Positions 1,763 to 38,450 of a stretch of DNA of 64,000 bases are shown piece after piece; position 1 is the first letter of the stretch, and every line of letters begins with the position of its first letter. A model generated the notes under the pieces. The model saw only the letters and a list, made by a program, of their open reading frames with translations. It was not told the DNA's origin and did not search any database. The translations under genes were made by a program, and so were the position numbers. The stretch is taken from the NCBI GenBank assembly GCA_016207275.1, contig JACQPY010000013.1:90583-154582 (forward strand). Reading direction: 5' to 3'. This DNA is from Candidatus Kerfeldbacteria bacterium. Its GTDB lineage: Bacteria; Patescibacteriota; Patescibacteriia; SBBC01.

Positions 1763-3574
1763 TTAAAGCCTTTTTTCCAACAGACCGATGGTTAGGCCGT
1801 TAACTTCAAGTTTTAAGCTGAAGTTTTTTCTCAATCCGCCGCTGATCGTGAGCGGAAGTTTCTTACCGGTTTTTTCTTTAATGATGTGCACCAGCGGCCC
1901 AATGATTTTTCCTTGCATGGTGGTGCGATCGACATAGGTGGACGGCGCAAGTTTTTGGCTGCCGACGCTTTTACCGAGATTCGCCAGCAACACTTGAAGC
2001 ACGGCCGTCGTCACTTTGCGCGAGTGCAGCTGTTTCGAATTTAGCGGCTCGCCGCGAATAAAAATTTTTCGTTCGAGCGGATCAAAGAAAAGGTCATAGT
2101 TTTTTCGTACTTTTTCCAGACGGTCAACGCTTACGGCCTGAGCGGAGACGTTTCCTCGCGACCAGGTTTTAATCAGCGCCGTGCCCGCTGAAATGAGCGG
2201 CGAGGTTTGCCCGGCTGCGAGGTATTGTTCAACCACCAATCCGCGCTCTTCAATCCCGTCGAGCCACGAGGCGTAATCGAGGTTGGTTCGAGTCCCAACT
2301 TTTTCGCGAAGAGTGGACATGATGCTGTCAATTGAGTGCTCGAGGGCGTACCGCGGAATGACGAACAACACGTCGCCGCCGCGGCCCGCGCCGGTAACCT
2401 TGCTGGCTAGAATGGTTTCCTCTTTCGTCGCCGCACGGCTTAAATAATGTCTCGTTAGTTCGACTGAGCGCGACGAAACGTGAAAAATTTCCAAACCGCC
2501 GTTGAAGACATCAATGGCGTGGGCCAGTTCGGAGAGGGCCCGCTCGGTGTAACCCTCGTCGAAAAGCTGTCGAAAGGCGGCTAAGCCCTGGAGCGTGGTC
2601 GCCTCCAAGGCGGACAGGTAGGCCTCCCACAGCGCCTCCGGCTGTTGGCGTGTTCGTTTCGTCAGTACCAGCTGTCCGAGCAGCGATGGCGGGACGTGCT
2701 GGCGGAGCGTGGCCGTAGTTGATTTAAGAACTTGATTGAGGGCATGCTTGACGTCACGGCCAGCTTGGACCGCCAGATCGGTCGTCAGATTGCTGCCGGT
2801 GTAGACCAGGCCGAAGTCGACTGGCCAGCGCTCGTCGAGCGGCAGGTCGAACAGTTCATGGAGACGACCGCCCCAATAGCGGTAGCGGTCGAACACGCCG
2901 AGATCAATGCGTCGGAGGTAGCCTTCGCGCTGCTCAGTGGCGAAGACGATCGGCGACGGCGAGCTGACCATGGCTGTGAACAGGCCGCAACCCGGTGAAA
3001 CCTCGCCTTCGAGGAGCGTTTCCATTTTCCAGGATAGCCGGAGGAGTCGGTCAAAAACCGGATCGGCGGCGAGTTGCACACTCGACCGGCCACCCCAGGC
3101 GGTCAGCGTCTCCGGTCGGAGTTCGTTAGTGCGCAGCAGCAATACCGCGCCGAGAGCAGTGGCCAGCGGCGCCCACGCGCCTAAGCCGCTACCCACCGGC
3201 AGTTCCTGAAGACTATGGATTCGCCAGCCGGGTGTCAGCCGATGATGGCCGCAGAATCCCTCGAGAAAACGCGCTAAGGAGTTGAGTTGCGGCGCGCGAA
3301 ACGTGGAGGTGCGGAATTCACCGTCGCTGGGTATGAAGGAACGTTGCGGCGCGAATGAGACGTGACCGTCGTTGGTCAGCTCCAACCCGACGTAGGCTCG
3401 TAGCGGAAGTTTTTGCCGCACCCCGAGCTCGCCATAACGCGTTACGTTGTCGCCGAACCAAAAGAACGACCGCGGCGCAGAAACGACGATTTCGCATTTC
3501 GAAAAAAACTCCCGGTAAACTTCTGGGAAGTTTTCTTGCAATGCCCCCGAATTCATAGTGATCCGTTGGGACAT
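1763..3574 (-). CDS. GHMP-family kinase-like protein with a ~200-aa C-terminal extension of unknown function
   Basis: GHMP motif 2-like ELPVGSGLGAWAPLATALGAVLL and motif 3-like TGAGRGGDVLFV. At 603 aa it is far longer than ordinary GHMP kinases (300-400 aa). The 3' (C-terminal) part is visibly lower in GC than the rest. Confidence 0.65.
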   Translation of the reverse strand: MSQRITMNSGALQENFPEVYREFFSKCEIVVSAPRSFFWFGDNVTRYGELGVRQKLPLRAYVGLELTNDGHVSFAPQRSFIPSDGEFRTSTFRAPQLNSLARFLEGFCGHHRLTPGWRIHSLQELPVGSGLGAWAPLATALGAVLLLRTNELRPETLTAWGGRSSVQLAADPVFDRLLRLSWKMETLLEGEVSPGCGLFTAMVSSPSPIVFATEQREGYLRRIDLGVFDRYRYWGGRLHELFDLPLDERWPVDFGLVYTGSNLTTDLAVQAGRDVKHALNQVLKSTTATLRQHVPPSLLGQLVLTKRTRQQPEALWEAYLSALEATTLQGLAAFRQLFDEGYTERALSELAHAIDVFNGGLEIFHVSSRSVELTRHYLSRAATKEETILASKVTGAGRGGDVLFVIPRYALEHSIDSIMSTLREKVGTRTNLDYASWLDGIEERGLVVEQYLAAGQTSPLISAGTALIKTWSRGNVSAQAVSVDRLEKVRKNYDLFFDPLERKIFIRGEPLNSKQLHSRKVTTAVLQVLLANLGKSVGSQKLAPSTYVDRTTMQGKIIGPLVHIIKEKTGKKLPLTISGGLRKNFSLKLEVNGLTIGLLEKRL

Positions 3575-16448: not shown

Positions 16449-18122
16449 TTAGGGACGAACTACTTGACCTGGTTCAAGGTGGCGCGTGTGCGGTGAACCC
16501 GGTGGCACGGGAACGTGCGGTACCGATGGCCGCGGTGAGGATTGACGTGTTTCTTTGGGCGGTGTTGACTTTGCTGGTTTACCGCCAAAGGTTACGGGCG
16601 CTTGCTTAAGCGCTTCAGTTAAGGAAATTGGCGGTGGTGTGCTGATCACGTTCGGTTCCTCGACGACGCGCTCGCTGGTTAGATCAATGACCGGTTGGTT
16701 TGATCGCTGACCGCTCGGCGATCGTCGATCAGCGGCGACGTTCTCGCTCTCCGCCGTGCCCTTGAAAATTTCTTCCACCCCGCTCCAGCGTAAGATTTTG
16801 TCTTCGACGACATCACGCTGTGTGGCATAGCGTTCCCGCGAGACGCGAATAATCTTGTCCCGGTTACCAGCCCGCGGGAATACCTGATCAACCGGCGGTA
16901 ACCCGGTCGCCGAAAACGGATCCGAGGCCACACCGTCAATCATCAGCTTTAAGTAAATATCATACTTCGTCAGGTTGACGAGGTCGGTCTCGGTAAAAAC
17001 GGGGGCGAATTCTTTTTCTAAAAACTCGGCGTCGGCGGCGCCGATACGAAAACAGACGATCGTTCCAACGTTACCAAAGACGGCGGCGCTGACTGTTTCC
17101 GAAAGTTGTTCGATGTACTGATGGGCGATAATTAAGTTGAGATGGTACTTCCGGGCTTCCGAGAGAATGGTGGCAAATGACTCCGTGGCAAAATTTTGAA
17201 ACTCGTCGACGTACATATAGAAGTCGCGACGCTGCGGTTCGGGTTTATCAATCCGACTCATTGCCGCGAGTTGCAACTTCGTAATCATCATCGCCCCGAG
17301 GAGCGAACTATTATCTTCGCCAATCCGGCCTTTGGCTAGATTCATCAACAGAATTTTACCTTCGTCCATTAACCAGCGCAGGTCGAATGACGATTTTGGC
17401 TGCCCGACAATATTGCGGATAACCGAGGAGGACAAAAATTGTCCGACTTTGTTTTGAATTGGACTAATCGCTTCGGTGCGGAACTGGTTGGAGTAGGCGG
17501 AGAACTCTTCAATCCAGAAGGCTTTGACGATTGGATCAGTTACCTTGGTGATTATCTTGGCCCGGTACTTTTTATCGACTAACAGCCGGGTGACGCCGAG
17601 CAGCGTGGAGCCCGGGTACTCCAGGAGCGACAGAATGCAGTTACGGAGCACGTACTCCAGTCGCGGCCCCCAGGAATCGACCCAGATTTTTTTGAAGACG
17701 GCAATTAGCCCCGACGATACCAGGTGCCGGTGATTGGGGTCGACCGCTTCCAAGACGTTGAATGAAATGGGGTGATCAAAGTCGGCCGGATTGAAATAGA
17801 TGATGTCGTTAACTCGCGGCGACGGAATGAAATCGATTATTTTCTCAACGAGATCACCAAGCGGGTCAATCACGACCAAGCCGTGGCCGGTGTTGATGTC
17901 CGACATGATCATGTTCTCGAGCATGGTTGACTTACCCATGCCGGTTTTGCCAATGAGGTAGACGTGCCGACGTCGATCGTCAGTTTTAATACCGAACTTA
18001 CGCCGGACATTGTGGTAGTTTGTTTCGGCAAAATACGTCACCTCATCTTCAAGCAGTTGGTGGTCCGGCGGTGGCGGCGTGATAATCGGCGCGGGTTCGA
18101 GTTGCGGTTGCGGTTGATGCAT
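16449..18122 (-). CDS. VirD4/TraG/TrwB-like (type IV coupling-protein-like) P-loop ATPase, soluble, with a Pro/Ser-rich C-terminal tail
   Basis: Walker A LIGKTGMGKST, Walker B FYMYVDEFQNF, and a motif near the C-terminus of the ATPase core (LIIAHQYIEQL) of the AHQ/QxxQL type seen in T4CP/VirB4-class ATPases. There is no N-terminal TM segment. Confidence 0.55.
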   Translation of the reverse strand: MHQPQPQLEPAPIITPPPPDHQLLEDEVTYFAETNYHNVRRKFGIKTDDRRRHVYLIGKTGMGKSTMLENMIMSDINTGHGLVVIDPLGDLVEKIIDFIPSPRVNDIIYFNPADFDHPISFNVLEAVDPNHRHLVSSGLIAVFKKIWVDSWGPRLEYVLRNCILSLLEYPGSTLLGVTRLLVDKKYRAKIITKVTDPIVKAFWIEEFSAYSNQFRTEAISPIQNKVGQFLSSSVIRNIVGQPKSSFDLRWLMDEGKILLMNLAKGRIGEDNSSLLGAMMITKLQLAAMSRIDKPEPQRRDFYMYVDEFQNFATESFATILSEARKYHLNLIIAHQYIEQLSETVSAAVFGNVGTIVCFRIGAADAEFLEKEFAPVFTETDLVNLTKYDIYLKLMIDGVASDPFSATGLPPVDQVFPRAGNRDKIIRVSRERYATQRDVVEDKILRWSGVEEIFKGTAESENVAADRRSPSGQRSNQPVIDLTSERVVEEPNVISTPPPISLTEALKQAPVTFGGKPAKSTPPKETRQSSPRPSVPHVPVPPGSPHTRHLEPGQVVRP

Positions 18123-18125
18123 ACG

Positions 18126-19607
18126 CTAGAGCGGTAGGTTGTCCGGCGCTGATCCTCGTTTGGTTGAGATCGTTGGGTGGAGCGGCGGCGGCGCCTCCAC
18201 GGCGGGCAGAGGAATTGACGATGGCGGCCTGGCTGACGGCGCGATCGAAGCAACCGACGCGGCTTGCCCCGGGGAAAACGGCGTACCCCGTAAGAATTCG
18301 GCTTCAACCGGAAGCGTCGCCGGCGGCTCACCGCGCTTACTCTCGGTTTTTTGCACCCGCGGGGCTTTGACCACCGTGGTGACGGGGAAGTGGTAGAGGC
18401 TGGCGAGCTCTTCGATGTTGAGAATGAACTTATTGCGCCCGCGTTTTAGGCTACGGTACTTGTATCCGTACAGCCGGCGCCATTTTCTCCAGTTGCCGCG
18501 CAGGGTGACGAACCATAATTCGGCGTTCGTTTTTGTTTTTTTGTCAATCATAAACCCGTTTAGATCAAGCGTATTAAACTGCCGCATCGCTCCAACCATG
18601 GCCGGACGACGGGTTCGGTTAAAAACGTCGTGTTTAGCTAGGTACATCAGCCGTATTTTTGATAGGTAGGCTGGTTTAGAGAGTTTAATGCCGACTTGTT
18701 CGACGGCCGTCCGCTCATGCGGCGGCAAGTGGAGCATCAGGCTCGGCGGCGTCCGGTCCTGACCAGTTTCGCTCGCCAGCGGCGACGGCGGGATGACACT
18801 GGCCACCGCCGATTCGTAGAGCCCTTGGGAAACCCAGGCCGGCAGCCAGCCCAAGTTTGATTTTTTTTCGATCACCTTGGAACCGATAAGTTTTTTCACC
18901 AGCCGAACGCCTTCGTCGCGCCAGCGGTCACTAGCCGGTTCAATAACGATCTGCATCCAATATTGTTCACCGCGGCCGAGACGCGAAAAAGTTTCTAAAA
19001 TGTTAGCCATCGGGTCAAAGAACGTTTGGGATAAGCTATGCTCAAACGACGGATAGGTTTTAATGGGGTAATATTGCTTGTTGGTCAGCTTGAGTTCCGT
19101 TCCCCACAGGTCGAATTCCTCGTTTGGAAACTTAGGTTGAAAGGCGGCGGTATAATCATTAACCTCAGCGATCTCGGCGTTCGGATACTGGGCGTAAAAA
19201 GCCGCCTCGACCAGGTCGCGAAACTTCTCCGGAGTCCGGATTAAAAACTGAACGCAGCCCTCGATGCTGATCAGCTCGAGCGAAAAGCCCAGCTGGGTAT
19301 AGCCATCAATAAAACGCTCCTTGATGTTGCCGAGCTTTTGGACGCCGAGCAGGTGCGCGAAAATTTGCTCGACCGCCTTAGGGCTCTGTTCATTCTCCTT
19401 CGGGACGTCAATCGCCAAGAGGACGTACTTTTGCGCCCCGGAAAACCTATTTCGAATGTACTCAAGCCAACCCTGCCAGCCACCATAGATAAAGACCGGA
19501 ATCAACACCAGCCAGGCACCGTGGGCAAACAAAAACCACATGGTGGCAAAGGGGTTGGTCACCCCACCAGCACCCGTGACGGTACTCAGGTCGATGACGA
19601 TTTCCAT
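18126..19607 (-). CDS. Large single-pass membrane protein of unknown function (493 aa), co-operonic with the T4CP-like ATPase
   Basis: One N-terminal TM helix (FATMWFLFAHGAWLVLIPVFIYGGW), then a roughly 400-aa soluble domain and a Pro/Ser-rich tail. It sits 3 nt upstream of the ATPase gene and 12 nt downstream of the regulator-like gene. Confidence 0.5.
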   Translation of the reverse strand: MEIVIDLSTVTGAGGVTNPFATMWFLFAHGAWLVLIPVFIYGGWQGWLEYIRNRFSGAQKYVLLAIDVPKENEQSPKAVEQIFAHLLGVQKLGNIKERFIDGYTQLGFSLELISIEGCVQFLIRTPEKFRDLVEAAFYAQYPNAEIAEVNDYTAAFQPKFPNEEFDLWGTELKLTNKQYYPIKTYPSFEHSLSQTFFDPMANILETFSRLGRGEQYWMQIVIEPASDRWRDEGVRLVKKLIGSKVIEKKSNLGWLPAWVSQGLYESAVASVIPPSPLASETGQDRTPPSLMLHLPPHERTAVEQVGIKLSKPAYLSKIRLMYLAKHDVFNRTRRPAMVGAMRQFNTLDLNGFMIDKKTKTNAELWFVTLRGNWRKWRRLYGYKYRSLKRGRNKFILNIEELASLYHFPVTTVVKAPRVQKTESKRGEPPATLPVEAEFLRGTPFSPGQAASVASIAPSARPPSSIPLPAVEAPPPLHPTISTKRGSAPDNLPL

Positions 19608-19619
19608 GTCACTGTTTAT

Positions 19620-20765
19620 TTAACTCTTGATCACGAGTCCGTACGCACCGGTTGGCAACCGCTGAAACAGCTTTTTATTGGTCAGCGCAAGGAGCACCGT
19701 ATTTCGTTTGACCAGTCGTTGCCGCAGCACCGCTGCAACCAGTTCATCCCGGGGCAGCGGTCGGTTAGCTCGCTGGAGGATGTCAACGAGCACATCAGCG
19801 ACGACGCCCGGTTTGTATCCCCACTCTTTCAGCGCGTAGATACCGCGGCCCACCAAAACATACTCCGGGTTGAGGATTAGTTCATTGTGGACTGTCGGCG
19901 GGTAGGCTCGTCGCCGGTCAAACCCGGCTTCGTTGATGCGCTGGGCAATTTCGGTAAAATGCATCGGCTTCCCGTGCTTGCGCATGATTAAGATAATTTT
20001 GTCGTTCATCCGTTTGGGCACGATGGTCCCCCACGTCGCTAGCCCAAACTCACCAAAGGGGTTGCGCGCGAGCTGGTTAGCGAGCGTGACGTACGCCAGC
20101 ACGGTTTCATCGGTAAACCAATTCTCATGTTGGCGATAGAGCGGTCGCTGGCGGAAGACGTCGAGCAGCTGATCGCGAGTCATCGGTGCACCGTGCTCAC
20201 GGGTGACGGTGGTTAGGGTATCAACCGCTTGGCGAACCAACTCGAGCGATTGCGCCTTCAGTTTCCAGCTGGCCCGAAAGACCTCGTCGCTTGGCCGTGA
20301 CTCGAAGCGATGGTTCAAGAGTTGCTCGAGGATAAACAGTAGGGCCCGACGTTGTTCAGGAGTATTCCCCGCGTGGCTTAAGGCTTCAGCAAAAAACGCT
20401 TGCTCTTCCATCATGCCGCCGTGGCCGTTCAGCACGATCAGGAGCAAACGCTCGATCGGTCCGAGTTGGTCGCGAAACTGTCGGGAACGCCGGATCTTTT
20501 GCACGGCTCCGCTTTCGATCTGCCGAATACGTTCACGGGTAACGTGGTACAGTTTGCCGATTTCCTCCAACGTTTGTGGCGCGTTGCCGTGTAATCCAAA
20601 CCGCCGACGAAGCACTTCCTGTTCTTTGTCGGTCAGCGATTTAATCAACCCGCCAAACGTTTCAGTCGGAACGAAACCCTCGATCGCTTGCGCATGCTGG
20701 CTCGATAGAACGCGATCAAGGATTGATCCGGACGGGCTCCTGCTGGGACTCTGATCGTCGGGCAT
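19620..20765 (-). CDS. Sigma-70 region-4-like domain protein with two C-terminal HARE-HTH-like domains. The start is placed at the second Met, because the first ATG (20786) abuts the -10 element
   Basis: N-terminal region-4-like HTH: LTDKEQEVLRRRFGLHGNAPQTLEEIGKLYHVTRERIRQIESGAVQKIRR. C-terminal HARE-HTH-like segments: KIILIMRKHGKPMHFTEIAQRINEAGFD...VGRGIYALKEW and VADVLVDILQRANRPLPRDELVAAVL...GAYGLV. No sigma region 2 is present. Confidence 0.55.
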   Translation of the reverse strand: MPDDQSPSRSPSGSILDRVLSSQHAQAIEGFVPTETFGGLIKSLTDKEQEVLRRRFGLHGNAPQTLEEIGKLYHVTRERIRQIESGAVQKIRRSRQFRDQLGPIERLLLIVLNGHGGMMEEQAFFAEALSHAGNTPEQRRALLFILEQLLNHRFESRPSDEVFRASWKLKAQSLELVRQAVDTLTTVTREHGAPMTRDQLLDVFRQRPLYRQHENWFTDETVLAYVTLANQLARNPFGEFGLATWGTIVPKRMNDKIILIMRKHGKPMHFTEIAQRINEAGFDRRRAYPPTVHNELILNPEYVLVGRGIYALKEWGYKPGVVADVLVDILQRANRPLPRDELVAAVLRQRLVKRNTVLLALTNKKLFQRLPTGAYGLVIKS

Positions 20766-20787
20766 ACTGATATTTAAAAACAACATT

Positions 20788-20816
20788 AGTATAGCATACT
20801 AGCAATTATCTGTCAA
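20788..20816 (-). promoter_or_regulatory. Strong sigma-70-type promoter TTGACA-17-TATACT for the three-gene operon (regulator-like / membrane / ATPase)
   Basis: On the minus strand: ccTTGACAgataattgctagtatgcTATACTaATG. The -35 is perfect, the spacer is 17 nt, and the -10 matches 5 of 6. It sits in a locally AT-rich patch. Confidence 0.55.
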
Positions 20817-20831
20817 GGAATGGGTTGACAG
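20810..20831 (-). promoter_or_regulatory. Perfect 7-bp inverted repeat CTGTCAA-N8-TTGACAG overlapping the -35 element; operator-like
   Basis: The minus strand reads ctgtcaa cccattcc ttgacag. The right half-site is the -35 hexamer itself. Confidence 0.4.
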
Positions 20832-20850: not shown

Positions 20851-20880
20851 GGTAAATAAAAAACCTGGCCGGCGACCAGG
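20851..20880 (-). terminator. Putative rho-independent terminator after secF
   Basis: A GC stem cctgg...ccagg (20864-20868 / 20876-20880) followed on the minus strand by TTTTTTATTT. The stem is short. Confidence 0.35.
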
Positions 20881-21798: not shown

Positions 21799-23448
21799 TT
21801 AGGCGATCGGCGGGCCCGCGCTTAGCCGCGGCCCAATTAATCCTCGATGTCGATCGAGCCAGGCAGTAATGGTCAAACGAAGAAAGGTTCGGCTGATCGT
21901 AATCGCGGAAAACATACTGACGATAATGCCGATGGCCAAGGTGATGGCGAAGCCTTTGATGATACTGGTGCCGAACCAGGCGAGAATAAAAGCGGTAATC
22001 AGGGAAGAAACGTTCGAGTCGCGAATGGACAGCCAGGCTCGTCGAAAGCCTTCCCCGAGTGCACTCTGAAGCGGTCGGCCAGCCCGCAGCTCTTCACGAA
22101 AACGCTCGAAAATCAGAATGTTGGCGTCCACGGCCATACCGATAGAGAGAATGAAACCGGCGACGCCGGCCAGGGTCAGCGTCACTGGCCACAGCTTAAA
22201 GATTGCTAAGACCATGACGGCGTAGGCAATCAGGGCGATCGACGCCAGCAGGCCAGGTACACGGTAGAAGCCGATCATGAACAGCATGACGACGGCAATG
22301 CCCACCAAGCCAGCGAACAAGCTGCGGGTGACCGAATCCTGACCGAGCGTCGGGCCGACGGTTTGCTGACTGATTAACGTGATCGGCACGGGCAAGGCAC
22401 CGGCATTCAAACGACGAGCCAGCGTTTTAGCCTCGTCAATCGTAAAGTCGCCGGTAATCACTGCCGTGCCGCCGGTAATTTCTTGCTGGACTACGGGAAC
22501 TGAAATCGGGGCGTTGTCGAGGTAGATGGCCACCTGCTTGCCAACGTTGCGTTTGGTTATTTCAGCGAATAGTTTGGTGCCCTCATCGTCGAACTGGAGA
22601 CTGACTTCTGGCTCACCGGTGTTGGGATTAAACTGAACGGCGGCGGAACGAAGCTGCTTACCGGATAACCCCGTGAGCGCATAACCCTCGGGATTCGATA
22701 GATCATTAATGGCGACCAAGATATGCTGACCATGGACTTCGAGGATAGTTTGATCGCCTTCTTGAACCTGTCGCGACTCAATTCGTTTAACGAGGTGGTA
22801 ACCAAATTCGGTTTTAACCGGCGGGGACGAAACCTGTCCGTCGCTTAAGGTATCAAAAAGAGTTTGTTCGAACGCGGGGACAAATTGGCCGCGGCGAGCA
22901 AAGCCCAAGTCACCGCCTGAGTTTTTTGAACCGGGGTCGTCAGAGTACTCTTTGGCGACCGTCGCAAAGTCCACCGTCGCCTGGCGCACCTTGGCCGCAA
23001 CTTCATCAGCACGGGCTTTAGCCTCGGTTTCGGAACGGAGTTGTTTCGCCGCTGCCGTCTCGCGAAAATCAAGTAGCGGCGTTTCACCAATTTGTCGGAT
23101 GGCCTCCTGGACGTCTTTAACCCCGGCCAGTTCAACGGAAACCCGCCACCGGTCCCCGACTCGACTGGTTTGGACAACCGGCTCAGATACGCCAAAGGCG
23201 TTGACCCGCCGTTCAATCACGTCGCGGACGCCCTGCAGGGCGTCTTCCCGATCGCTGGTTTTAACCCGAGTGGTGTCGGCGTCGTAGACTAACCGCGTGC
23301 CGCCTTGTAAATCAAGACCAAGATGAACTTTCAGTTCCTTGCGGTACGAGCCAACCGCCACGTCAGGAGCGCTGGGATAGACGACGTACCCACCGGCCAG
23401 GACCACCAGGACAATGAGGATAAACGTAATCCAGACGTTCCGTCGCAT
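21799..23448 (-). CDS. secD: Protein-export membrane protein SecD
   Basis: An N-terminal TM helix, a periplasmic domain, and the C-terminal six-TM bundle (GPTLGQDSVTRSLFAGLVGIAVVMLFM...). It sits 3 nt upstream of secF. Confidence 0.9.
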   Translation of the reverse strand: MRRNVWITFILIVLVVLAGGYVVYPSAPDVAVGSYRKELKVHLGLDLQGGTRLVYDADTTRVKTSDREDALQGVRDVIERRVNAFGVSEPVVQTSRVGDRWRVSVELAGVKDVQEAIRQIGETPLLDFRETAAAKQLRSETEAKARADEVAAKVRQATVDFATVAKEYSDDPGSKNSGGDLGFARRGQFVPAFEQTLFDTLSDGQVSSPPVKTEFGYHLVKRIESRQVQEGDQTILEVHGQHILVAINDLSNPEGYALTGLSGKQLRSAAVQFNPNTGEPEVSLQFDDEGTKLFAEITKRNVGKQVAIYLDNAPISVPVVQQEITGGTAVITGDFTIDEAKTLARRLNAGALPVPITLISQQTVGPTLGQDSVTRSLFAGLVGIAVVMLFMIGFYRVPGLLASIALIAYAVMVLAIFKLWPVTLTLAGVAGFILSIGMAVDANILIFERFREELRAGRPLQSALGEGFRRAWLSIRDSNVSSLITAFILAWFGTSIIKGFAITLAIGIIVSMFSAITISRTFLRLTITAWLDRHRGLIGPRLSAGPPIA

Positions 23449-23484: not shown

Positions 23485-24888
23485 TCAACGCTCAACAATC
23501 ACGGGCGTGGCCACGGTCGCCCAGTGGTAGAGCTTCTTCGCTTCCGCTAAGGTTTGACGGATGCAACCATGTGAGACTGCCGTCCCCAGGTGGCCAACGC
23601 CTTCGTACCGTTTTCCCCCGCCGTTCGTTTTCCAGAATGGCAAGGCATGCATGCCGTAGGAACCATCGGGCGTAAAGGCCATCCACCATTCCATGTACAG
23701 GTCGTAGGGCTTAGCGTACGCGACCGTAATTTTGTTTTTAACGGCAAACGTGCCGATTGGTGTTGGCGTCGTCCACTTGCCAGTCGAGACTTGATGGGTG
23801 CCGAGCAGCAGCCCATTCTGGTAGTAGCGGAGCTTTTGTTCTGATAGATCAATGGCGATGTAGCGGTATAAATCCAAACGGCCATCGGTGCCAACCGCGC
23901 CGGGACCGACCAGCACGCCGCTGCTTCCTGCGGCAACAAAGACGCCACCGCGGAATTGCTGTTCGTACGCCAGGAACGAATGTTTTTGCCTGCCGTTGAG
24001 CGAAAAGATGCGGACGTGCGGTTTGCTACCTGGACCCTGGGCGGCGACGATTTCGGCGATACCGTCGCCGTCCAGGTCGCCGGCGGCGATCTGGACGCCA
24101 CCGGTAAACGAGGCGGCAAATGCGTAAAACGTTTGTTCGTACTGCTGACGATTAGGATCAAAAACGCGGACGCGGGTCGAAGCCGATCGTTCCTGGGCCA
24201 TGACGAGCCGACTGCGCTGGCCAGTGACTGCGGCGACGGCCACAACTACCCCCGCGGTTGAGCCGGGAAACGGCCGCAAGCTTAGACCAGCGTACTGACC
24301 GTCAGGAGTGAACGAGCGAACGTGGCTTGTCCCGTAGCCGGAACCGGTCACGATTCGCGTTTCACCGTTCGACCCCAGCGGTCCAGCGGCGACGCTGACG
24401 CCGCCGCGAAAACGTTTGTCATAGACGAAAAAGGCGGTTTGACGCGAGCCGTCGGCGTTAAAGACACGCACCTCAGGGCCGCCACCACTCCCCGGCGCGG
24501 TCACGATTTCTGCTCGACCGTCACCAGTCAAGTCGTAGGCCGCGACCCGAATCCCGCCCCGAAAACCGCGGTCGTAGGCAAAAAAGCGGCGAACGAGCCG
24601 GCCGTCGCGAGCGTAAATACGTACCTCTGGTCCGCCGCCAGGGCCCGCGCCGGTAATGATCTCGTCCGCGCCATCACCGTCGATGTCGCTCAGCGCCACG
24701 GTTACACCACCACGAAAAGTTTTACGGTAGGCGGTGATTGATTGCTGTCGGTTCCCGTTTGGCGAAAATAAATGGACCTCAGGTTCCATTCGGCCAGTTA
24801 CCGCCGCCTCGACTCGGTCAGCACGTAGCGCAAAAAACAGGCTCACGACTATGGCGATACTGGCGAGCGCTTCAACCGATGTTCGCAT
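23485..24888 (-). CDS. Secreted L,D-transpeptidase (YkuD domain) with four N-terminal FG-GAP-like repeats
   Basis: A signal-peptide-like N-terminus, then four repeats of the form FRGG.x.VAxxDxDGDGxxEIVTGxGPGGGPEVRVF. The C-terminal YkuD catalytic domain has GTHQVSTGKW...TPTPIGTFAV...HGCIRQ. Confidence 0.75.
   Translation of the reverse strand: MRTSVEALASIAIVVSLFFALRADRVEAAVTGRMEPEVHLFSPNGNRQQSITAYRKTFRGGVTVALSDIDGDGADEIITGAGPGGGPEVRIYARDGRLVRRFFAYDRGFRGGIRVAAYDLTGDGRAEIVTAPGSGGGPEVRVFNADGSRQTAFFVYDKRFRGGVSVAAGPLGSNGETRIVTGSGYGTSHVRSFTPDGQYAGLSLRPFPGSTAGVVVAVAAVTGQRSRLVMAQERSASTRVRVFDPNRQQYEQTFYAFAASFTGGVQIAAGDLDGDGIAEIVAAQGPGSKPHVRIFSLNGRQKHSFLAYEQQFRGGVFVAAGSSGVLVGPGAVGTDGRLDLYRYIAIDLSEQKLRYYQNGLLLGTHQVSTGKWTTPTPIGTFAVKNKITVAYAKPYDLYMEWWMAFTPDGSYGMHALPFWKTNGGGKRYEGVGHLGTAVSHGCIRQTLAEAKKLYHWATVATPVIVER
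23991..24726 (-). repeat. Intragenic tandem array of FG-GAP-like repeat units (about 55-60 aa each) inside the L,D-transpeptidase gene
   Basis: The DxDGDG...EIVT...PEVRVF unit recurs four times at the protein level and visibly at the DNA level (gccggcggcgat / gtcgatgtcgct ... gtcgcc motifs). Confidence 0.6.
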
Positions 24889-28166: not shown

Positions 28167-30185
28167 TTAAAAACCGATAAATTGAACCTCTTCCTCGAGT
28201 TGAACGCCAAACTGGTCTCGGACCTGCTGCTTGACCAGACTCGCCAGCATGACCACGTGCTCCGCGGTGCCGCCGCCGAGGTTGACGAAGAAATTCGCGT
28301 GCTGTTTGTTGACCTCGATCTGACCGATCCGTCTGCCAGCCAGCCCGGCTTCGGCAATTAAGGCCCAGGCTGGCAACCGACCATGCTTAATGACCGCGGC
28401 AAATCGCGTACGCAAACGCTCGTGGTCTTGTTTCAAGACGATATTCTTGAACATGCAACCCGCACTCGGCCAGGTCAGCGGCTGGTGTGCTCGTTTATAG
28501 GCGGTGAATTCGGCGATCTGTTGGCGAGCTTCAGCCACGGCACCGGTAGTCAGGGTACATCGGACCGTGATCACCGCCGCTGGCGTGTGCTTGAGCCGGC
28601 TGTCACGGTAGCCGAACCTAAGCTGCTCGTTCGTCCATGTTTCGACGGTTCCCCGTCCGGTAATAACCTGGCACGAGCGGACAATGTCTCGCATTTCGCG
28701 GCCAAAGGAACCGGCGTTACCGCGAACTGCCCCGCCGACGGTACCATAGATGCCGACCATAAACTCCATGCCGACGAGGCCAGCGTTGAGGCACTGACTG
28801 GCAAATAGACCCGTATTCATCCCCGCACCAACGGTAACCGCTGTACCGTCAGCGGTAAATTCAGCGTTACGCGCCTGGATGACGACGCCACGAAATCCCG
28901 GGTCGGAAAAAACACTATTGGCGCCGCCGCCGAGGATGAAGGACGGCAGTCGAGCCTGGTGCACGGCTCGAACAGTCGCCACTAATTCGGCTGACGTTCG
29001 CGCCACCACAAACATGTCAGCAGGGCCACCGATCTTAAAGTTACTGTGTTTAGCCAGCAATTCACTAAAACGAATATCACTGACCCGGGATGCCAGCTGG
29101 CGCACTACGTGACGGTACGGCGGTGGCTGGGCAAGTCGTTCAACCTGGCGAACGATCGTTTGGGCGGCATCTAACTTAGCCAGCGCTCGGACGTTAGCAG
29201 CCAACTGGCCGCGGCGCAGCTTATTTTCATGTAGCTCAAGTATGGTTTGCTCGAGTCGCTGGTGGTTTAAGGTCCGCTCGTTGAGCACCACGGCCGCTTG
29301 ATGACGAGCGAAGTACGCCGCATTAGCTTCTTGATGGGTGGCCGGAATTGGGATAACAATGGCGGGTTTACCGAGGGCGGCGATTTCCGCCAGACTCGAT
29401 AGACCGGCTCGGCAAATTACCAAATCGGCTACGGCATACGCGTCAGCCATCTCGTTTATCAAGAAATCGAATGTATGGTAGTTGGGGTGCGTCACTCGAA
29501 ACTGATTTTGTCGGCCGCCGGTCAGGTGGACGATCTGAAAATTTTTGACCAGGTTGAGACCCGCTTCGGCCACCAATTGGTTGAGGCGGAGCGCGCCCGT
29601 GCCGCCGCCAAACGCCAGCAGGACTGGTAAGGTCTTGTGCAGGCCAAAGCGTTCGTACGCCCGCTGGGCCTGGCCGTGGAGTATTTCCGGGCGAATTGGG
29701 TTGCCAACCCAACTTGTTTTTCGTCGGGAGAAATGCTGTTCAGACTCAGGAAAGGCCACGGTAATCGCCGCGGCCACCGGCGCACACAGTCGGTTGGCAA
29801 GGCCGGGTTTGATATCTTGCTGATGGATCAAGCTGGGAATACCAAAGAGTCGACCGACGTAGACGATCGGTACGCTGACATAGCTGCCGACGCTGACGAT
29901 CGCATCAGGACGAAATTGGCGGAGGAGACGCCACGCTTCGGCCACACCGATAAGCAGTCGAACAATGTCAACCACGTTAAGTAACGAAACGTAGCGGCGC
30001 AGCTTACCGGCGGTAATACCGACGAACGGTAAATCCGCCGCTTGGGCGAGTTGTCGTTCTGCGCCGTGACGGGTACCAACCAAGAGCAGCTCAACCTGAG
30101 GGTGACTTCGCCGCAGCTCGTTGGCAATCGCCAACAGCGGCACCGTGGCTCCGCCGGTACTGCCGCCGACTAAAATAACCCGCAT
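28167..30185 (-). CDS. murG-murB: MurG–MurB fusion protein: N-terminal undecaprenyl-PP-MurNAc-pentapeptide GlcNAc transferase fused to a C-terminal UDP-N-acetylenolpyruvoylglucosamine reductase
   Basis: Residues 1 to about 360 are MurG (MRVILVGGSTGGATVPLLAIANEL...). Residues from about 375 to 672 are MurB, with the FAD-binding FKIGGPADMFVVARTSAELV and LGGGANSVFSD. Confidence 0.85.
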   Translation of the reverse strand: MRVILVGGSTGGATVPLLAIANELRRSHPQVELLLVGTRHGAERQLAQAADLPFVGITAGKLRRYVSLLNVVDIVRLLIGVAEAWRLLRQFRPDAIVSVGSYVSVPIVYVGRLFGIPSLIHQQDIKPGLANRLCAPVAAAITVAFPESEQHFSRRKTSWVGNPIRPEILHGQAQRAYERFGLHKTLPVLLAFGGGTGALRLNQLVAEAGLNLVKNFQIVHLTGGRQNQFRVTHPNYHTFDFLINEMADAYAVADLVICRAGLSSLAEIAALGKPAIVIPIPATHQEANAAYFARHQAAVVLNERTLNHQRLEQTILELHENKLRRGQLAANVRALAKLDAAQTIVRQVERLAQPPPYRHVVRQLASRVSDIRFSELLAKHSNFKIGGPADMFVVARTSAELVATVRAVHQARLPSFILGGGANSVFSDPGFRGVVIQARNAEFTADGTAVTVGAGMNTGLFASQCLNAGLVGMEFMVGIYGTVGGAVRGNAGSFGREMRDIVRSCQVITGRGTVETWTNEQLRFGYRDSRLKHTPAAVITVRCTLTTGAVAEARQQIAEFTAYKRAHQPLTWPSAGCMFKNIVLKQDHERLRTRFAAVIKHGRLPAWALIAEAGLAGRRIGQIEVNKQHANFFVNLGGGTAEHVVMLASLVKQQVRDQFGVQLEEEVQFIGF

Positions 30186-30194: not shown

Positions 30195-31295
30195 TTACGA
30201 TCGAGCATAGCGAGAAATATTGGCCAATATTCCAATGGCCGCGCACGAGGTGATGAGCGCGGTACCGCCATAGCTGACGAACGGTAACGGAATGCCGGTC
30301 AACGGCAAGACGCCGGTCAACGCCCCGATGTTGATCAAGGCTTGAAAACCAAACCAGGTCGTAATCCCGGCGGCCAGGATGCGGCCGAATTCATCGGGTG
30401 CCTGGCGAGCAATGCGGTAGCCTTTAAAAATAAACGCGACAAACAGCGCCAGCAAGCCAAGCACGATAATGAAACCGAGCTCTTCAGCGATGATGGCAAA
30501 AATTGAATCGCTGGTGGCCTCCGGTAAGTAGTCGAATTTCTGGCGCGAGTGCCCGAGACCGAGGCCGAAGAGGCCGCCTGAACCGATTGCCAAAAGCGCT
30601 TGGTTAATGTGGTAGCCAATGCCCTGCGGGTCGAGCTGCGGGTTAAGGAAGACCAAAAAACGTTCGACGCGATACGACGCGGTCTTGATGAGCACGGCAA
30701 AAGCGGTAACGGCAAAACCACCAATCAAGACTAAATCGCGCACCGGCGCACCGGCGACAAAGTAGCTCGATAAAGCAATCAGGGTGATAATGGTCATCGT
30801 GCCGATGTCGGGTTGTCTGATGATGAGAAGCGTAATCGTACCGAGAATCGCCAGGAACGGCCAGAGGCCGTAAGCACGATCTTGAATTCGGTGTTCGCGT
30901 TCACTCAGCCAGCCGGCTAAGTAAATCAAAAACATGATTTTTACCAACTCGGCAGGTTGAAAAAAAATAGGACCGATCGAGATCCACCGTCGTGCGCCGA
31001 GCAACTCGCGGCCAATTCCTGGAATGAAAACAGCGACTAGCAGGGCGATTGACAAAACCAGAAGCGGAAAAGCAACGGCCCGCCACTGGCGATAGTCAAT
31101 CCTAACGGTGACGCTAAAAATAATAACGCCGATGAGGATACTTAATAGTTGCCGCTTTAAAAAGTACGTACTGTCACCGTACTGCTGGTAGGCGACGACC
31201 GTACTGGCGCTCGATAAGACCACGAGCCCGAAAACCACGATGGCGCCGACGATGAGGAGCAGGGCGGGATCGAGGCGGCGTGAGGAACGGGTCAT
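30195..31295 (-). CDS. ftsW: SEDS-family peptidoglycan polymerase FtsW/RodA
   Basis: A 10-TM SEDS protein with LLLIVGAIVVFGLVVLSSAS... and the conserved C-terminal GGTALITSCAAIGIL. A 4-nt overlap with the upstream gene. Confidence 0.85.
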   Translation of the reverse strand: MTRSSRRLDPALLLIVGAIVVFGLVVLSSASTVVAYQQYGDSTYFLKRQLLSILIGVIIFSVTVRIDYRQWRAVAFPLLVLSIALLVAVFIPGIGRELLGARRWISIGPIFFQPAELVKIMFLIYLAGWLSEREHRIQDRAYGLWPFLAILGTITLLIIRQPDIGTMTIITLIALSSYFVAGAPVRDLVLIGGFAVTAFAVLIKTASYRVERFLVFLNPQLDPQGIGYHINQALLAIGSGGLFGLGLGHSRQKFDYLPEATSDSIFAIIAEELGFIIVLGLLALFVAFIFKGYRIARQAPDEFGRILAAGITTWFGFQALINIGALTGVLPLTGIPLPFVSYGGTALITSCAAIGILANISRYARS

Positions 31296-33436
31296 GAGCG
31301 TAGTTTTATCACGGCCGTTCGAAACTGATCGCCGCGGTCGAACTCATGCTGAAACAGACCGAAGCTGGCAGCGCCAGGACTCAAGATGATCGATTGGCCG
31401 ACCTGAGCCGTTTTGATTGCCTGTCGGACCGCGACGGGCATTGAAGCAACTTGACGCAGACGACCGTGGTAACCAAAGCGACGCAATGCTCGGATCAGTT
31501 TACGCGTCGCCGTTCCTGGTAACAATACCAGTGGGGTTGTCCGACGGGCAAATGTTTTGGCGAGGGCCCTAAAATTTAGTCGTTTGTCGGTTCCGCCAAC
31601 GATGAACAAACCGTCAGGAAAAGCTTCTACCGCTGCCAGCGTTGCATCTGGCGTCGTGGCGGAGGAATCGTTAACAAAACTATGTCCGCGCCATCGCCGG
31701 ACAAGTTCTTGACGGTGCGGTAGAAGACGAAACCCGCGGAGCGCCCGCCGAATTGTCGCGATGGGGATGCGTACAGCTCGGGCGGCACTAACCGCGGCGA
31801 TGACATTTGCCTGTAAGGCCGTGGTTGAGAACGTTTCCGATAGTTTGGGAATAATCGTCGTTGATTTCGTTCCGTGACGCTCAACTAACTTTCCCTTTTG
31901 CAGATAAATACTCCAGCCGGGCGGTCGCTCCCGCTGCGACCACCACAGGATTTTAGCCCCGGTTACGTGACGAGCTAAACGAGCTGGCCGAGAATCGTAG
32001 TTGAGAACCGCAATGTCTCGCGGGTTTTGGTACTGAAACATACGGTATTTGGCGGCGGCGTAAGCTGACATGTTCTGGTATCGATCAAGATGATCGACCA
32101 AGAGGTTCGTCATAACGGCCACCTGCGGACTGCGCGCGACCGCATCCGAAAATTCAAGCTGAAATGATGACAGTTCGAGGATAACGTAATCTTGTTTCGA
32201 CAATCGGTCGAGAACACTGAGCATCGGCTTTTGTGCAATGTTACCCGACAATACCACCCGGGATAGCTGCGGCCGCATGATCTGGTACAAGAGCCAAGCG
32301 ACCGTCGACTTTCCCCGCGTTCCCGTGATGCCAATAATTCTCGCTGGACAGAAGCGAAGAAAAAGCGACCACTCGTTGACGATTGGTTTTCTCAGTTTTC
32401 GGGCTAAACGTAATTCGGGAATTGATGAAGGTACGCTTTGATTTTGGTAGACAAGATCAGCCCAGTGAATATCTTCTCGATGGTGACCGCCCAAACGATA
32501 CCTGACCGGTAATTCACGAAGCTGACGAAGTGTCGGCGCGAGCTGACGAGCGTTTTTGCGATCGGTGACGCAAACGTGCGCGCCGTGTTTAACAAACCAT
32601 TCGACTGCGCTGGCCGCTCCCCCATGCAAACCCAGACCGACCACTAACACACGCTTACCCTTAAGCGATTCGAGCGGATCGCGCAATCCAGCGATGACCA
32701 CGAACGAATGCCGGCGATCGGATTTTTGCCGACGGGCTGAGGGCAACAGCCAGCGACTATGAATCGTACAGTGTCGACTAACCTCAAGCTGTGCGGTGAG
32801 CACACCGGCGCTTACCAACTCGAGTGTGGCCGCTCGACGCAGGTCAAGGAACACTCGACCGGCTCGGTGAACCACCGTCGAATTTCCGAACCGCTTCATA
32901 AATTGATGTACGCGGCGGTCACGTTTTTCGGTCACGTCATAACAGCACGGGCCGGCTGATGGCCCGAGCCAAACCAACAGGGCTCTCGGCGCGGCACCGC
33001 ACGCGACCATTGTTTGAATCAGGTTTTGCACCACCCCGCGAACAAGCCCACGCCAGCCAGCATGAGCGACACCAACGATGCGGTGCACTGGATCGTAGGC
33101 CACAACCGGAATGCAATCAGCCGAGTAGAGGCCCAACGATTGGCCGAGTTTCTTGGTGACTAAGCCGTCGGTACTAGCTACGAACGTTCGCGGTTTGGCT
33201 GAATTGCCGGAGACCAATGCCACGCGTCGACCGTGGACCTGTTGACCGAAAACAATCCCGCTTGATCGGGCGCCTAACGTTTGATAGAAAACGATACGAT
33301 TGTTCACCGCGCGTCGTCCAGTCGCATGAGCAAACCGTCGTTGACCCTGCCACACGATTCCACCGCCCACAATCAATTCAGGAAAACGACCAAACAGGCG
33401 CGGCCGGATGATAACCGGTCGAGTAGGCACGCTCAT
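31292..33436 (-). CDS. pgeF-murD: PgeF/YfiH (DUF152, peptidoglycan editing factor / laccase-domain) fused to MurD (UDP-MurNAc-L-Ala--D-Glu ligase)
   Basis: The N-terminal roughly 245 aa carry the YfiH signature HRIVGVAHAGWRGLVRGV. The C-terminal part is MurD (KGKRVLVVGLGLHGGAASAVEWF, P-loop IGITGTRGKSTVAWLL, DHLDRY). Confidence 0.8.
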   Translation of the reverse strand: MSVPTRPVIIRPRLFGRFPELIVGGGIVWQGQRRFAHATGRRAVNNRIVFYQTLGARSSGIVFGQQVHGRRVALVSGNSAKPRTFVASTDGLVTKKLGQSLGLYSADCIPVVAYDPVHRIVGVAHAGWRGLVRGVVQNLIQTMVACGAAPRALLVWLGPSAGPCCYDVTEKRDRRVHQFMKRFGNSTVVHRAGRVFLDLRRAATLELVSAGVLTAQLEVSRHCTIHSRWLLPSARRQKSDRRHSFVVIAGLRDPLESLKGKRVLVVGLGLHGGAASAVEWFVKHGAHVCVTDRKNARQLAPTLRQLRELPVRYRLGGHHREDIHWADLVYQNQSVPSSIPELRLARKLRKPIVNEWSLFLRFCPARIIGITGTRGKSTVAWLLYQIMRPQLSRVVLSGNIAQKPMLSVLDRLSKQDYVILELSSFQLEFSDAVARSPQVAVMTNLLVDHLDRYQNMSAYAAAKYRMFQYQNPRDIAVLNYDSRPARLARHVTGAKILWWSQRERPPGWSIYLQKGKLVERHGTKSTTIIPKLSETFSTTALQANVIAAVSAARAVRIPIATIRRALRGFRLLPHRQELVRRWRGHSFVNDSSATTPDATLAAVEAFPDGLFIVGGTDKRLNFRALAKTFARRTTPLVLLPGTATRKLIRALRRFGYHGRLRQVASMPVAVRQAIKTAQVGQSIILSPGAASFGLFQHEFDRGDQFRTAVIKLRS

Positions 33437-36725: not shown

Positions 36726-38450
36726 GTGATCAATCAAACAAAACTCTACAACATCCTGACTAAAAGTAGTGTCATTGCGTCTGACGCACTGGATGGCGCA
36801 GTCCAGGAGTCGAAAGAGCAACACGCTGATTTGGCGCAGTTTTTGGTGGCTAAAAATTTAGCCTCGGAAACGATCTTATACGAAACAATCGCGACCGGTT
36901 TAAAAATCCCTTTTGTCGATCTTTCCGCGATCAAAGTCCGACGCGACATCCTGACGATTGTGCCCGAACCAATCGCCCAGCTACATCATCTCGTCGCCTT
37001 CGATAAAACCGACCAGGGACTAAAAGTCGCAACGCTCGACCCGGATGACATCCAATCCTTTGAATTTTTGGAAAAGAAGGTTGGCCTGCCAATCGAAGTC
37101 CATCTCGCTACCCCCGCGGGAATTAAATCGATTCTCAAGCAGTACCGCAAAGGCCTGCGGGCTGAGTTCCGGGAAATCACCGCCGAGCAAGTCGAAGGCG
37201 CCGGTCCAGAAAATCTGAAACAACTTGCCGAAGACGTCCCGGTTGTCAGAATCGTTGACACCCTCCTCGAACACGCCATTTTTGAAAGCGCCTCCGACAT
37301 CCATATTGAACCGACGGAGAAAGACACGGTGGTCCGGTACCGCATCGACGGCATCCTGCGCGACGTCATGACCTTACCCAAAAAGATCCAGTCGGGCGTC
37401 GTGGCGAGAATTAAAATCCTGTCAAACTTAAAAATCGACGAGCACCGTCTACCGCAAGACGGCCGGTTTAAAATTGAAACCGATGCTCAGCGCGTCGCCT
37501 TCCGCGTTTCCATCCTGCCGGTTTACGACGGCGAAAAAGTCGTTTTACGCGTCCTCAATGAATCGGCCCAAGCGCTCTCGCTCGAGCAACTCGGTCTTCA
37601 GTCACGACCGCTGGAACTGCTGCAACGCAACATCAGTAAACCCCACGGCATCATCTACGTCACGGGGCCGACGGGATCGGGAAAAACCACCACCCTCTAC
37701 ACCGTCATTACTAAACTCAATACGGCCTCGGTCAACATTTCAACTATCGAGGACCCCATCGAGTACCGGATGATTCGCGTCAACCAAACTCAAGTCAATC
37801 CCAAAATCGGCCTGACCTTTGCGGCCGGCCTACGCGCCCTCCTCCGCCAGGATCCGAACATCATTATGGTCGGCGAAATTCGTGATATGGAAACAGCGGA
37901 AATAGCCACGCACGCCGCGATGACCGGTCACCTCGTGTTGACCACCCTGCACACAAACGATGCCGTCACCACGCTCCCTCGCCTGACTGAAATGGGCGTA
38001 CCGAGTTTCCTCGTTGCTTCAACGACTAACCTCGTTATGGCGCAGCGCTTAGTCCGAAAAATTTGCACCCACTGCATCGAAAGCTACACCCTCTCGCGGA
38101 CGGCGATCACCAACCTAGCCAAGCAAATAAACATCCAAAATATTCTCGAGATCCTCGAACACGAAGGCGCCATCGCCTCGGCCAAACAGGCGCCGGAGAC
38201 GTTGCTGTTCTATCGTGGCCGAGGCTGTCGTCAATGCAATGACACTGGCTACAAAGGCCGTATTGGCATTTACGAACTCCTCGAAGTCACCGCCGAAGTC
38301 AGCGAAGTCATTCTTCATCGCGCGACGGCCGACGAACTACAATCCCTGGCGGTCAAGCAAGGCATGTTGACCATGCTCCACGACGGCTTTCTCAAGGCCA
38401 AAGCGGGAATCACCACCGTCGAAGAAATCCTCCGCGTGACTAAGGAGTAG
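36726..38450 (+). CDS. pilB: Type IV pilus assembly ATPase PilB (GspE family), GTG start
   Basis: Walker A VTGPTGSGKTTTLY, Asp and His boxes, and the tetra-Cys motif CTHCIESY...CRQCNDTGYKGR. Confidence 0.9.
   Translation: MINQTKLYNILTKSSVIASDALDGAVQESKEQHADLAQFLVAKNLASETILYETIATGLKIPFVDLSAIKVRRDILTIVPEPIAQLHHLVAFDKTDQGLKVATLDPDDIQSFEFLEKKVGLPIEVHLATPAGIKSILKQYRKGLRAEFREITAEQVEGAGPENLKQLAEDVPVVRIVDTLLEHAIFESASDIHIEPTEKDTVVRYRIDGILRDVMTLPKKIQSGVVARIKILSNLKIDEHRLPQDGRFKIETDAQRVAFRVSILPVYDGEKVVLRVLNESAQALSLEQLGLQSRPLELLQRNISKPHGIIYVTGPTGSGKTTTLYTVITKLNTASVNISTIEDPIEYRMIRVNQTQVNPKIGLTFAAGLRALLRQDPNIIMVGEIRDMETAEIATHAAMTGHLVLTTLHTNDAVTTLPRLTEMGVPSFLVASTTNLVMAQRLVRKICTHCIESYTLSRTAITNLAKQINIQNILEILEHEGAIASAKQAPETLLFYRGRGCRQCNDTGYKGRIGIYELLEVTAEVSEVILHRATADELQSLAVKQGMLTMLHDGFLKAKAGITTVEEILRVTKE

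Follow-up and report, generated by a model that had tools for sequence, protein, structure and literature searches.

A 64,000-nt stretch of Candidatus Kerfeldbacteria DNA (contig JACQPY010000013.1, positions 90,583-154,582, assembly GCA_016207275.1; hereafter the window) was analysed for a minus-strand open reading frame (ORF) whose product joins a sigma-70 domain 4 to four winged helices of the HARE-HTH type, and which is here called sigma4-WH. As judged by sequence, sigma4-WH is a protein family of wide occurrence in Patescibacteria, the ultra-small bacteria of the Candidate Phyla Radiation (CPR), and the sigma domain 4 of the family is derived from a primary sigma factor. The reading that is tentatively favoured, and that we would put a little short of probable, is that the protein binds DNA as a promoter-associated factor and recognises TTGACA-like sequences; its binding, its specificity and its regulatory action are what we infer from these features. 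The product is 100% identical to the NCBI entry 'hypothetical protein HY567_02705' from a metagenome-assembled genome (MAG) of Candidatus Kerfeldbacteria. The gene and the domains of its product are as follows.

19620-20786, minus strand: sigma4-WH ORF, 388 aa from the first ATG, 381 aa from the ATG at 20765.
20463-20726, minus strand: sigma-70 domain 4 (regions 4.1-4.2 and C-terminal tail), aa 21-108, from Pfam, PDB matches and the model.
20253-20462, minus strand: winged helix 1 (WH1), aa 109-178, with its first helix from aa 102, from the model and hhalign; acidic.
20031-20252, minus strand: winged helix 2 (WH2), aa 179-252, from the model and hhalign; acidic.
19803-20030, minus strand: winged helix 3 (WH3), aa 253-328, from Pfam HARE-HTH; basic, the most conserved part.
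19623-19802, minus strand: winged helix 4 (WH4), aa 329-388 (modelled unit 329-386), from the model and hhalign; basic.

An earlier note on this DNA, made from the letters alone, had matched residues of about 45-105 to sigma-70 region 4, and the match was borne out by Pfam (Sigma70_r4, PF04545; aa 48-99, E=5.3e-17, 61.5 bits with a cut-off of 24.1) and by PDB structures. In a phmmer search against the PDB, region 4 of SigA/RpoD was aligned with aa 42-108; the string 'TRERIRQIE' is the same in both, and the alignment extended into the sigma-A C-terminal tail (RSRQFRDQL against RSxxLRDYL). Matches to the NCBIfam RpoD/SigA models were confined to their last ~60 positions, i.e. to their C-terminal ends. 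Identity to region 4 of SigA/RpoD was 42-52% in structure-based Foldseek alignments, with 52% for S. aureus SigA. An AlphaFold2 model of the full protein was built on 40 homologs (mean predicted local distance difference test score (pLDDT) 91, predicted template modelling score (pTM) 0.76), and its sigma domain 4, which consists of five helices (aa 22-100), was superposed by Foldseek on plain sigma domain 4 with a root-mean-square deviation (rmsd) of 0.9-2 A.

The residues of E. coli sigma-70 that contact the -35 hexamer are R584, E585, R586, R588 and Q589. They correspond, at an offset of exactly 500, to R84, E85, R86, R88 and Q89, which together with T83 are invariant among the 40 homologs (46-73% identical overall), and the contact stretch is kept as TRERVRQ in a 34%-identical Saccharibacteria ortholog (locus L070). 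The TLEE turn, E55, R62 and L65 are also conserved among the 40 homologs, and F63 varies between F, Y and H; we take E55, R62, F63 and L65 to be the equivalents of sigma-70 E555, R562, F563 and I565, which form part of the surface touched by the flap and AsiA. K593, R596 and R599 of sigma-70 are the positions touched by class II activators, and their equivalents are variable in the family. The domain has a median net charge of +4, with conserved K/R residues.

No Pfam match to Sigma70_r2 (PF04542) or r3 (PF04539) was obtained for the protein even at E<=1, PF04542 was present in none of the 120 best homologs, and in the AlphaFold model domain 4 is followed by winged helices, not by regions 2/3; the absence of region 2, also claimed by the earlier note, therefore holds. 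RpoD/SigA and sigma4-WH share the fold of domain 4, the recognition helix TRERIRQIE and the C-terminal tail, whereas in sigma4-WH the domain is N-terminal, winged helices come after it, and regions 1.2, 2 and 3 are lacking, so that the protein has no means of binding the core clamp helices or of melting the -10 element. Of the parts that define a sigma-70 sigma factor, it has domain 4 with the -35 helix and lacks domain 2. No RpoD was located inside the window, and the coexistence of the family with a normal RpoD is therefore taken from the published tables for Southlakia epibionticum.

These are Tables S1 and S2 of Wang et al. 2023 (PMC10633639), which report transposon sequencing (Tn-seq) of S. 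epibionticum in co-culture with its host. SEML1_0294 is there a 349-aa protein with PF04545 at 27-72 and PF05066 at 225-283; its DPAM domains are given as 'tri-helical, winged, winged, winged', the third being templated on 7f75 chain L, which was confirmed as B. subtilis RNA polymerase (RNAP) delta. Its orthology with the window protein is supported by L070, which has the same length, Pfam coordinates and fused neighbour and is 34% identical to the window protein. The gene is scored ES/ES/ES by Tn-seq and essential from T0, with 24 insertions in the input and 1-2 after selection, and its entry, under the PROKKA name 'RpoS', carries the flags 'core family' and 'Patescibacteria enriched' (PMC10633639). 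The same tables hold SEML1_0063, a normal, essential RpoD with regions 1.2, 2, 3 and 4, and this rules out that sigma4-WH is simply the housekeeping sigma factor of the lineage, the case that the earlier note had named against itself. Because the core-binding, -10-melting domain 2 is missing and a normal RpoD coexists, sigma4-WH is not a sigma factor. For S. epibionticum the tables show a complete FtsK and no RNAP delta (PMC10633639).

The architecture is annotated automatically in databases and the family stands in this published essential-gene table, but its function and genomic partnership are not discussed in the literature searched; the family is absent from the main text of Wang 2023, Meheust 2019, the 2024 PNAS perspective and the 2025 type IV secretion system (T4SS) paper.

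In the profile searches both Sigma70_r4 and HARE-HTH exceeded their Pfam cut-offs. Pfam HARE-HTH (PF05066) was matched in part at aa 264-291 (E=2e-8, 35 bits, cut-off 25.9) and over its full length in the Saccharibacteria ortholog L070 (E=3.4e-15, 56.6 bits), and the PF05066-type unit of the model has helix-helix-helix-hairpin topology. The C-terminal unit, aa 329-386, had no Pfam match; it was aligned by hhalign with WH2 (96%, P=1.5e-9), WH3 (94%, P=1.6e-7) and WH1 (90.5%, P=1.4e-6). By these profile comparisons the four winged helices are mutually related and come from internal duplication. Where the earlier note had seen two C-terminal HARE-HTH units, the assignment was thus upheld by PF05066 and the hhalign match of 94%, and the count was raised to four, spanning aa 102-386.

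The most conserved stretch of the protein covers the end of WH2 and WH3 (NPFGEYGL..WG..PKRMNDKI...GKPLHFTEI...YPPTVHNELILN..YVLVGRGIYALKEWGYKPGVV), and the motif NPFGEYGL..WG at the end of WH2 is invariant. Invariant residues of WH3 among the 40 homologs are T298, H300, N301 and E302 on helix 3, which in winged helices is the usual recognition helix, and G313, R314 and G315 in the wing; WH4 too is extremely conserved, and its conserved basic residues are R346, R357, K360 and R376. The median net charge is -3 for WH1, -2 for WH2, +5 for WH3 and +3 for WH4, compared with -10 for the N-terminal domain of B. subtilis RNAP delta, which places the basic WH3 and WH4 closer to nucleic-acid binders than to the RNAP-docking domain of delta. 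The best whole-chain match found by Foldseek in the PDB was the C-terminal half of SelB (1lva, E=1.2e-4), followed by sigma-A region 4 structures; a sequence search of the winged-helix part against the PDB gave nothing meaningful, the best match being CadC at E=1.1. The C-terminal half of SelB is likewise a string of four winged helices and has no sequence relationship to sigma4-WH; unlike those of sigma4-WH, its winged helices bind selenocysteine insertion sequence (SECIS) RNA and hang from a GTPase.

A promoter-associated DNA-binding factor is the most economical reading because the -35-reading residues are invariant, because the sigma domain 4, WH3 and WH4 are basic, and because the native promoters carry TTGACA: the promoters of the CPR loci examined are of the form TTGACA-17-TATAAT with a TG extension, so the motif expected for the sigma4 module is the native -35. 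Invariance over such divergence also agrees with a target that exists at many sites, such as the promoter -35, or else with a universal partner, since drift would be expected for a private operator. The sigma domain 4 would dock on TTGACA-type DNA, the basic WH3-WH4 pair would contact a second stretch of nucleic acid, and WH1-WH2 would form a spacer or a protein-contact surface. At -35-like sites across the genome, the protein would compete or cooperate with the sigma-A holoenzyme, and it may also control its own operon. The proposal of the earlier note, an RNAP-associated regulator, fares well insofar as a promoter- or RNAP-linked role is still the most reasonable one, and less well in its likening of the C-terminal pair to delta, as that pair is basic (+5, +3) and delta acidic (-10). 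The anti-sigma role that it had offered besides is not supported: no match of the protein to an anti-sigma family was found in Pfam, NCBIfam or PADLOC, and no result is in its favour.

A universal partner could be RNAP itself, and the main rival, which is considered rather unlikely, holds that the protein would be an accessory subunit with its sigma domain 4 on the beta-flap tip helix and its HARE winged helix or helices docked like the delta N-terminal domain; this would make it a general factor peculiar to the CPR, similar to delta or in competition with sigma, with a part in recycling, sigma exchange or hibernation. Retention of the whole sigma domain 4, with region 4.1 and the C-terminal tail in addition to the helix-turn-helix, suits this proposal, as does conservation of the residues that match the sigma-70 flap/AsiA surface on the mapping assumed above. 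WH2 and WH3 both align to the delta N-terminal domain (hhalign 86% and 71%, the latter over 53 columns), with WH3 taken as its closest relative, in keeping with the delta template of the third SEML1_0294 domain; no delta is listed for S. epibionticum; and essentiality and extreme conservation would suit a partner as conserved as RNAP. Delta (RpoE) of Firmicutes, however, has a single acidic N-terminal domain and a long polyanionic tail and binds RNAP, not DNA, at the beta' shelf/jaw, whereas sigma4-WH has four HARE-HTH-type units of which the C-terminal two are basic, a fused sigma domain 4 and no acidic tail, the protein ending at WH4 instead of in the long acidic C-terminal region that goes with the single HARE domain of delta. 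In the architecture of RNAP the beta' shelf/jaw site of delta is far from the flap tip, and the flap site is also needed by region 4 of the organism's own RpoD. Flap binding alone, moreover, would not demand invariant DNA-reading residues.

The separate idea that aa 110-121 (PIERLLLIVL) form a built-in mimic of the beta flap-tip helix was not supported by a second model (aa 20-178, pLDDT 90), which was searched against the PDB. Sigma4/flap chimeras fitted no better (rmsd 4.5-6.4 A) than sigma in holoenzymes (~3 A), and the extra aligned columns of the search came from the first helix of domain 4.

Sigma domain 4 is used or replaced by other proteins that are not sigma factors, as in the two-subunit sigma SigO-RsoA, the phage T4 proteins AsiA, MotA and gp33, and the effector domains of LuxR/GerE type; to our knowledge, none of these combines it with HARE winged helices. 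MzaA carries a sigma4-type helix-turn-helix as a separable module, and the window protein matches MzaA models only over region 4 (aa 42-102).

A word-indexed search returned more than 4,500 hits; the best 120 range from 370 to 460 aa in length, and each has both PF04545 and PF05066. When grouped at 50% identity, the matches of an exhaustive search with the winged-helix part alone formed 439 clusters below E=1e-30 and 835 below E=1e-10, and most clusters among the matches listed are 340-410 aa. With one genome taken per GTDB species, the locus was confirmed in at least 597 species, and the locus-level counts given below cover 80 of these loci, each from a different assembly. The 80 include Kerfeld-, Buchanan-, Doudna-, Uhr-, Falkow-, Yanofsky-, Wolfe- and Staskawiczbacteria, Parcubacteria and Saccharibacteria, and the remaining loci are labelled only 'Patescibacteria group bacterium' or 'bacterium'. 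Eight carry the title 'uncultured Gammaproteobacteria bacterium' (L010, L013, L014, L016, L017, L030, L046 and L055); as they have the CPR gene order described below, in most cases preceded by secDF, these are probably MAGs with a wrong label.

The region upstream of the gene in the window contains three further features.

20788-20816, minus strand: near-consensus sigma-70-type promoter TTGACA-17-TATACT with TG extension, 11 of 12 matches.
20810-20831, no strand assigned: inverted repeat CTGTCAA-N8-TTGACAG, of which the arm at 20810-20816 is the minus-strand -35 hexamer.
20864-20880, minus strand: terminator-like hairpin and T-run after secF; a new transcription unit begins here.

The -10 hexamer ends at 20788, only 2 nt ahead of the first ATG (20786), which would thus lie upstream of any plausible transcription start; translation therefore probably starts at the next in-frame ATG, 20765 (M8). 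A start at 20765 would leave a leader of ~16 nt with no obvious Shine-Dalgarno sequence (window 20763-20786). A promoter-like site of the form TTGAC-N16-18 was found upstream of the sigma4-WH gene in 63 of 73 upstream regions, in many cases near consensus and with an extended -10, which suggests abundant expression of the gene.

The inverted repeat was the basis on which the earlier note had proposed autoregulation. Its presence on the promoter was confirmed, and the autoregulation drawn from it found no backing in conservation. In 64 kb, chance alone would give about 40 inverted repeats of 7 nt. An inverted copy of the -35 core (GTCAA) occurs within 30 nt in 10 of the 63 loci, 3.7 times the expectation from base composition, and of 60 5-mers equal in composition GTCAA is the most frequent. 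When set against other promoter-like sites of these loci, the inverted copy was present in 9 of 62 independent loci and in 13 of 188 such sites (Fisher p=0.075), and it lies 3 to ~20 nt away, on either side of the -35. A role of the palindrome as a conserved operator is therefore not supported, the enrichment being 3.7-fold but not significant against these sites and the spacing and orientation varying.

The same observations bear on the proposal, held to be very unlikely, that sigma4-WH is a local repressor of its own operon, acting at sites that overlap the -35 and essential only because the unrepressed membrane protein and ATPase encoded downstream would be toxic. The overlap of palindrome and -35 and the weak excess of inverted -35 copies agree with it, and an essential regulator with a dispensable target is the pattern expected for the repressor of a toxic product. 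That excess, however, is not significant and is irregular in spacing and orientation, another clade has a different palindrome in its leader, and phylum-wide invariance of the DNA-reading surfaces would be unusual for such a role.

This second palindrome, GCTAA-N2-4-TTAGC, marks the sigma4-WH genes of a Buchanan-/Falkowbacteria-like clade (within L012-L048): 13 of 72 loci have it in their 5' leader (e.g. L034 185-196, L015 3678-3689), and in that position it is ~22 times denser than in the rest of the loci. Most copies lie at -28 to -68 from the ATG and four are further upstream, to -139. The window gene has no such palindrome upstream; one copy elsewhere in the window (36849-36862) is just downstream of a promoter-like site at 36670, close to where a PilB-type ATPase gene begins.

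By gene order, the sigma4-WH gene heads a unit of three genes that is kept throughout the phylum; its other two members are, in the window:

18126-19607, minus strand: DUF8128-related (PF26449) membrane protein, 493 aa, 12 nt after the sigma4-WH stop codon.
16449-18122, minus strand: orphan P-loop ATPase of VirD4/TraD/TrwB type, similar to type IV coupling proteins (T4CP-like), with Pfam TrwB_AAD_bind, T4SS-DNA_transf and TraG-D_C.

The two intergenic gaps are 12 nt (sigma4-WH to DUF8128) and 3 nt (DUF8128 to ATPase). As determined by tblastn with the window neighbours, a DUF8128-type gene is directly downstream of sigma4-WH in 72 of the 80 loci and a T4CP-like ATPase is downstream in 74, with contig ends accounting for four of the six exceptions; among loci with enough flank, both follow immediately on the same strand in ~74 of 76, across CPR classes. 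Upstream, secD-secF were found in about half of the loci. The DUF8128 and ATPase genes are fused into one 896-aa ORF in the gut Saccharibacteria locus L070 (4826-7516), a counterpart of the 921-aa SEML1_0293, and are separate and overlapping elsewhere (e.g. L022, 4842-6026 and 6023-7795); the fusion implies that the two proteins work as one unit. The ATPase has weak matches to the TraD/VirD4 models of NCBIfam, far below every equivalog cut-off, and its TraG-D_C part is the 'TraM recognition' region. Neither VirB4 nor a relaxase was found near it in the window, where the neighbours are secA, secD, secF, mnmA-like and alaS genes and others, so the locus does not contain the set of coupling protein, VirB4, relaxase and channel parts that makes up a type IV secretion or conjugation module.

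This gene order invites the reading, quite unlikely in our estimate and drawn by analogy, that sigma4-WH is an adaptor that recruits DNA and would feed it to the DUF8128 protein and the ATPase, the trio forming a membrane DNA-translocation device. The accessory DNA-binding proteins of the TraM-TraD and TrwA-TrwB pairs provide the model, and TraM, TrwA and PcfF are, as sigma4-WH would be, DNA-binding proteins encoded with a VirD4/TraD-type ATPase; their folds (ribbon-helix-helix and others) differ from that of sigma4-WH. The tight, co-oriented linkage, the fusion in some Saccharibacteria, and the TrwB_AAD_bind and 'TraM recognition' regions of the ATPase all speak for an adaptor. Thousands of T4CP homologs are likewise orphans in Patescibacteria: a 2025 survey counted 5,713 VirD4-like genes in 2,918 genomes, of which 148 were near virB4, and described the orphans as 'possibly exapted' (PMC12102498). 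Unlike the TraM, TrwA and PcfF systems, however, the sigma4-WH locus has no relaxase, origin of transfer (oriT) or VirB4 nearby, and FtsK is separately present. More directly, the T4CP-like protein SEML1_0293 that adjoins SEML1_0294 in S. epibionticum is non-essential (PMC10633639) and the sigma4-WH gene is essential, which implies that the essential job is not carried out through the ATPase.

The neighbourhood of a coupling-protein homolog could also suggest a secreted effector, delivered into the host bacterium to hijack its transcription by mimicking the host sigma-A domain 4, since CPR bacteria are epibionts and the essentiality was measured in host co-culture. This is regarded as most improbable: the protein is very highly conserved across lineages with differing hosts, some of which are archaea, it shows no sign of fast evolution, and the coupling-protein homolog is dispensable.

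Two other assignments of the locus were rejected. Membership in a defence system was not borne out by PADLOC, which placed sigma4-WH, DUF8128 and the ATPase in no known system and gave no full-length component match with partners: beyond the partial MzaA match, the ATPase was matched weakly by mad8/HerA and DUF8128 by none. A split FtsK was discarded, since the FtsK of S. epibionticum is complete, includes a gamma domain and is essential.

Several other genes of the window were noted. The DUF8128-related ORF at 18126-19607 (minus strand) had no match in the Pfam copy used, and it is its homologs that carry PF26449 in precomputed annotations; the 603-aa ORF at 1763-3574 (minus strand) likewise had no match in that copy. 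SecD (21799-23448, minus strand) has a peptidyl-prolyl isomerase insert of PpiC/parvulin type (aa 135-224) between the first P1 segment and the P1 head, and among the loci with called genes listed, the CPR loci L001-L006 have it too. The gene at 23485-24888 (minus strand) encodes a YkuD L,D-transpeptidase domain after FG-GAP repeats, and such a gene is just upstream of secD in 16 of 86 related loci, where the upstream sequence suffices. Two fused cell-wall genes are located at 28167-30185 (minus strand; MurG (GT28)-MurB) and 31292-33436 (minus strand; Cu-oxidase_4, laccase-like and of YfiH type, joined to a MurD-like Mur ligase).

Four points weigh against the favoured reading of sigma4-WH as a promoter-associated DNA-binding factor. 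The conserved sigma4 residues would be equally expected if the domain holds the RNAP beta-flap tip; a purely global role in transcription does not account for the gene being linked almost everywhere to the T4CP-like ATPase; no conserved operator was found upstream of the sigma4-WH gene, the conservation of the palindrome not being significant; and TTGACA is not over-represented in the window, with 22 copies on both strands against ~31 expected from length alone.

In a bolder form, which we think unlikely, the family would be an unrecognised general transcription factor of Patescibacteria, a 'promoter reader' of duplex promoters. Its sigma-A-derived domain 4 would sit on the -35 with WH3-WH4 about one spacer length downstream, or alternatively it would occupy the RNAP flap in place of the sigma domain 4. 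If this is true, such a factor would be essential for growth, would gate the access of the sigma-A holoenzyme, and would be coupled through its operon to a membrane DNA-translocating ATPase.

A large part of bacterial diversity belongs to Patescibacteria, and the regulation of their transcription is almost unexplored. Sigma4-WH occurs throughout the lineage and is essential in the only species tested; in this protein a piece of the housekeeping sigma factor has kept its promoter-reading residues in a setting where sigma activity is not possible alone. If binding to the -35 or to the RNAP flap is true, the family would represent a new layer of bacterial promoter recognition and would help to account for the 'Patescibacteria-enriched essential genes of unknown function'. 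The fixed pairing with an orphan coupling-protein ATPase is in addition a lead on the role of thousands of orphan T4CP homologs, and the genetic tractability of S. epibionticum already puts these ideas within reach of experiment.

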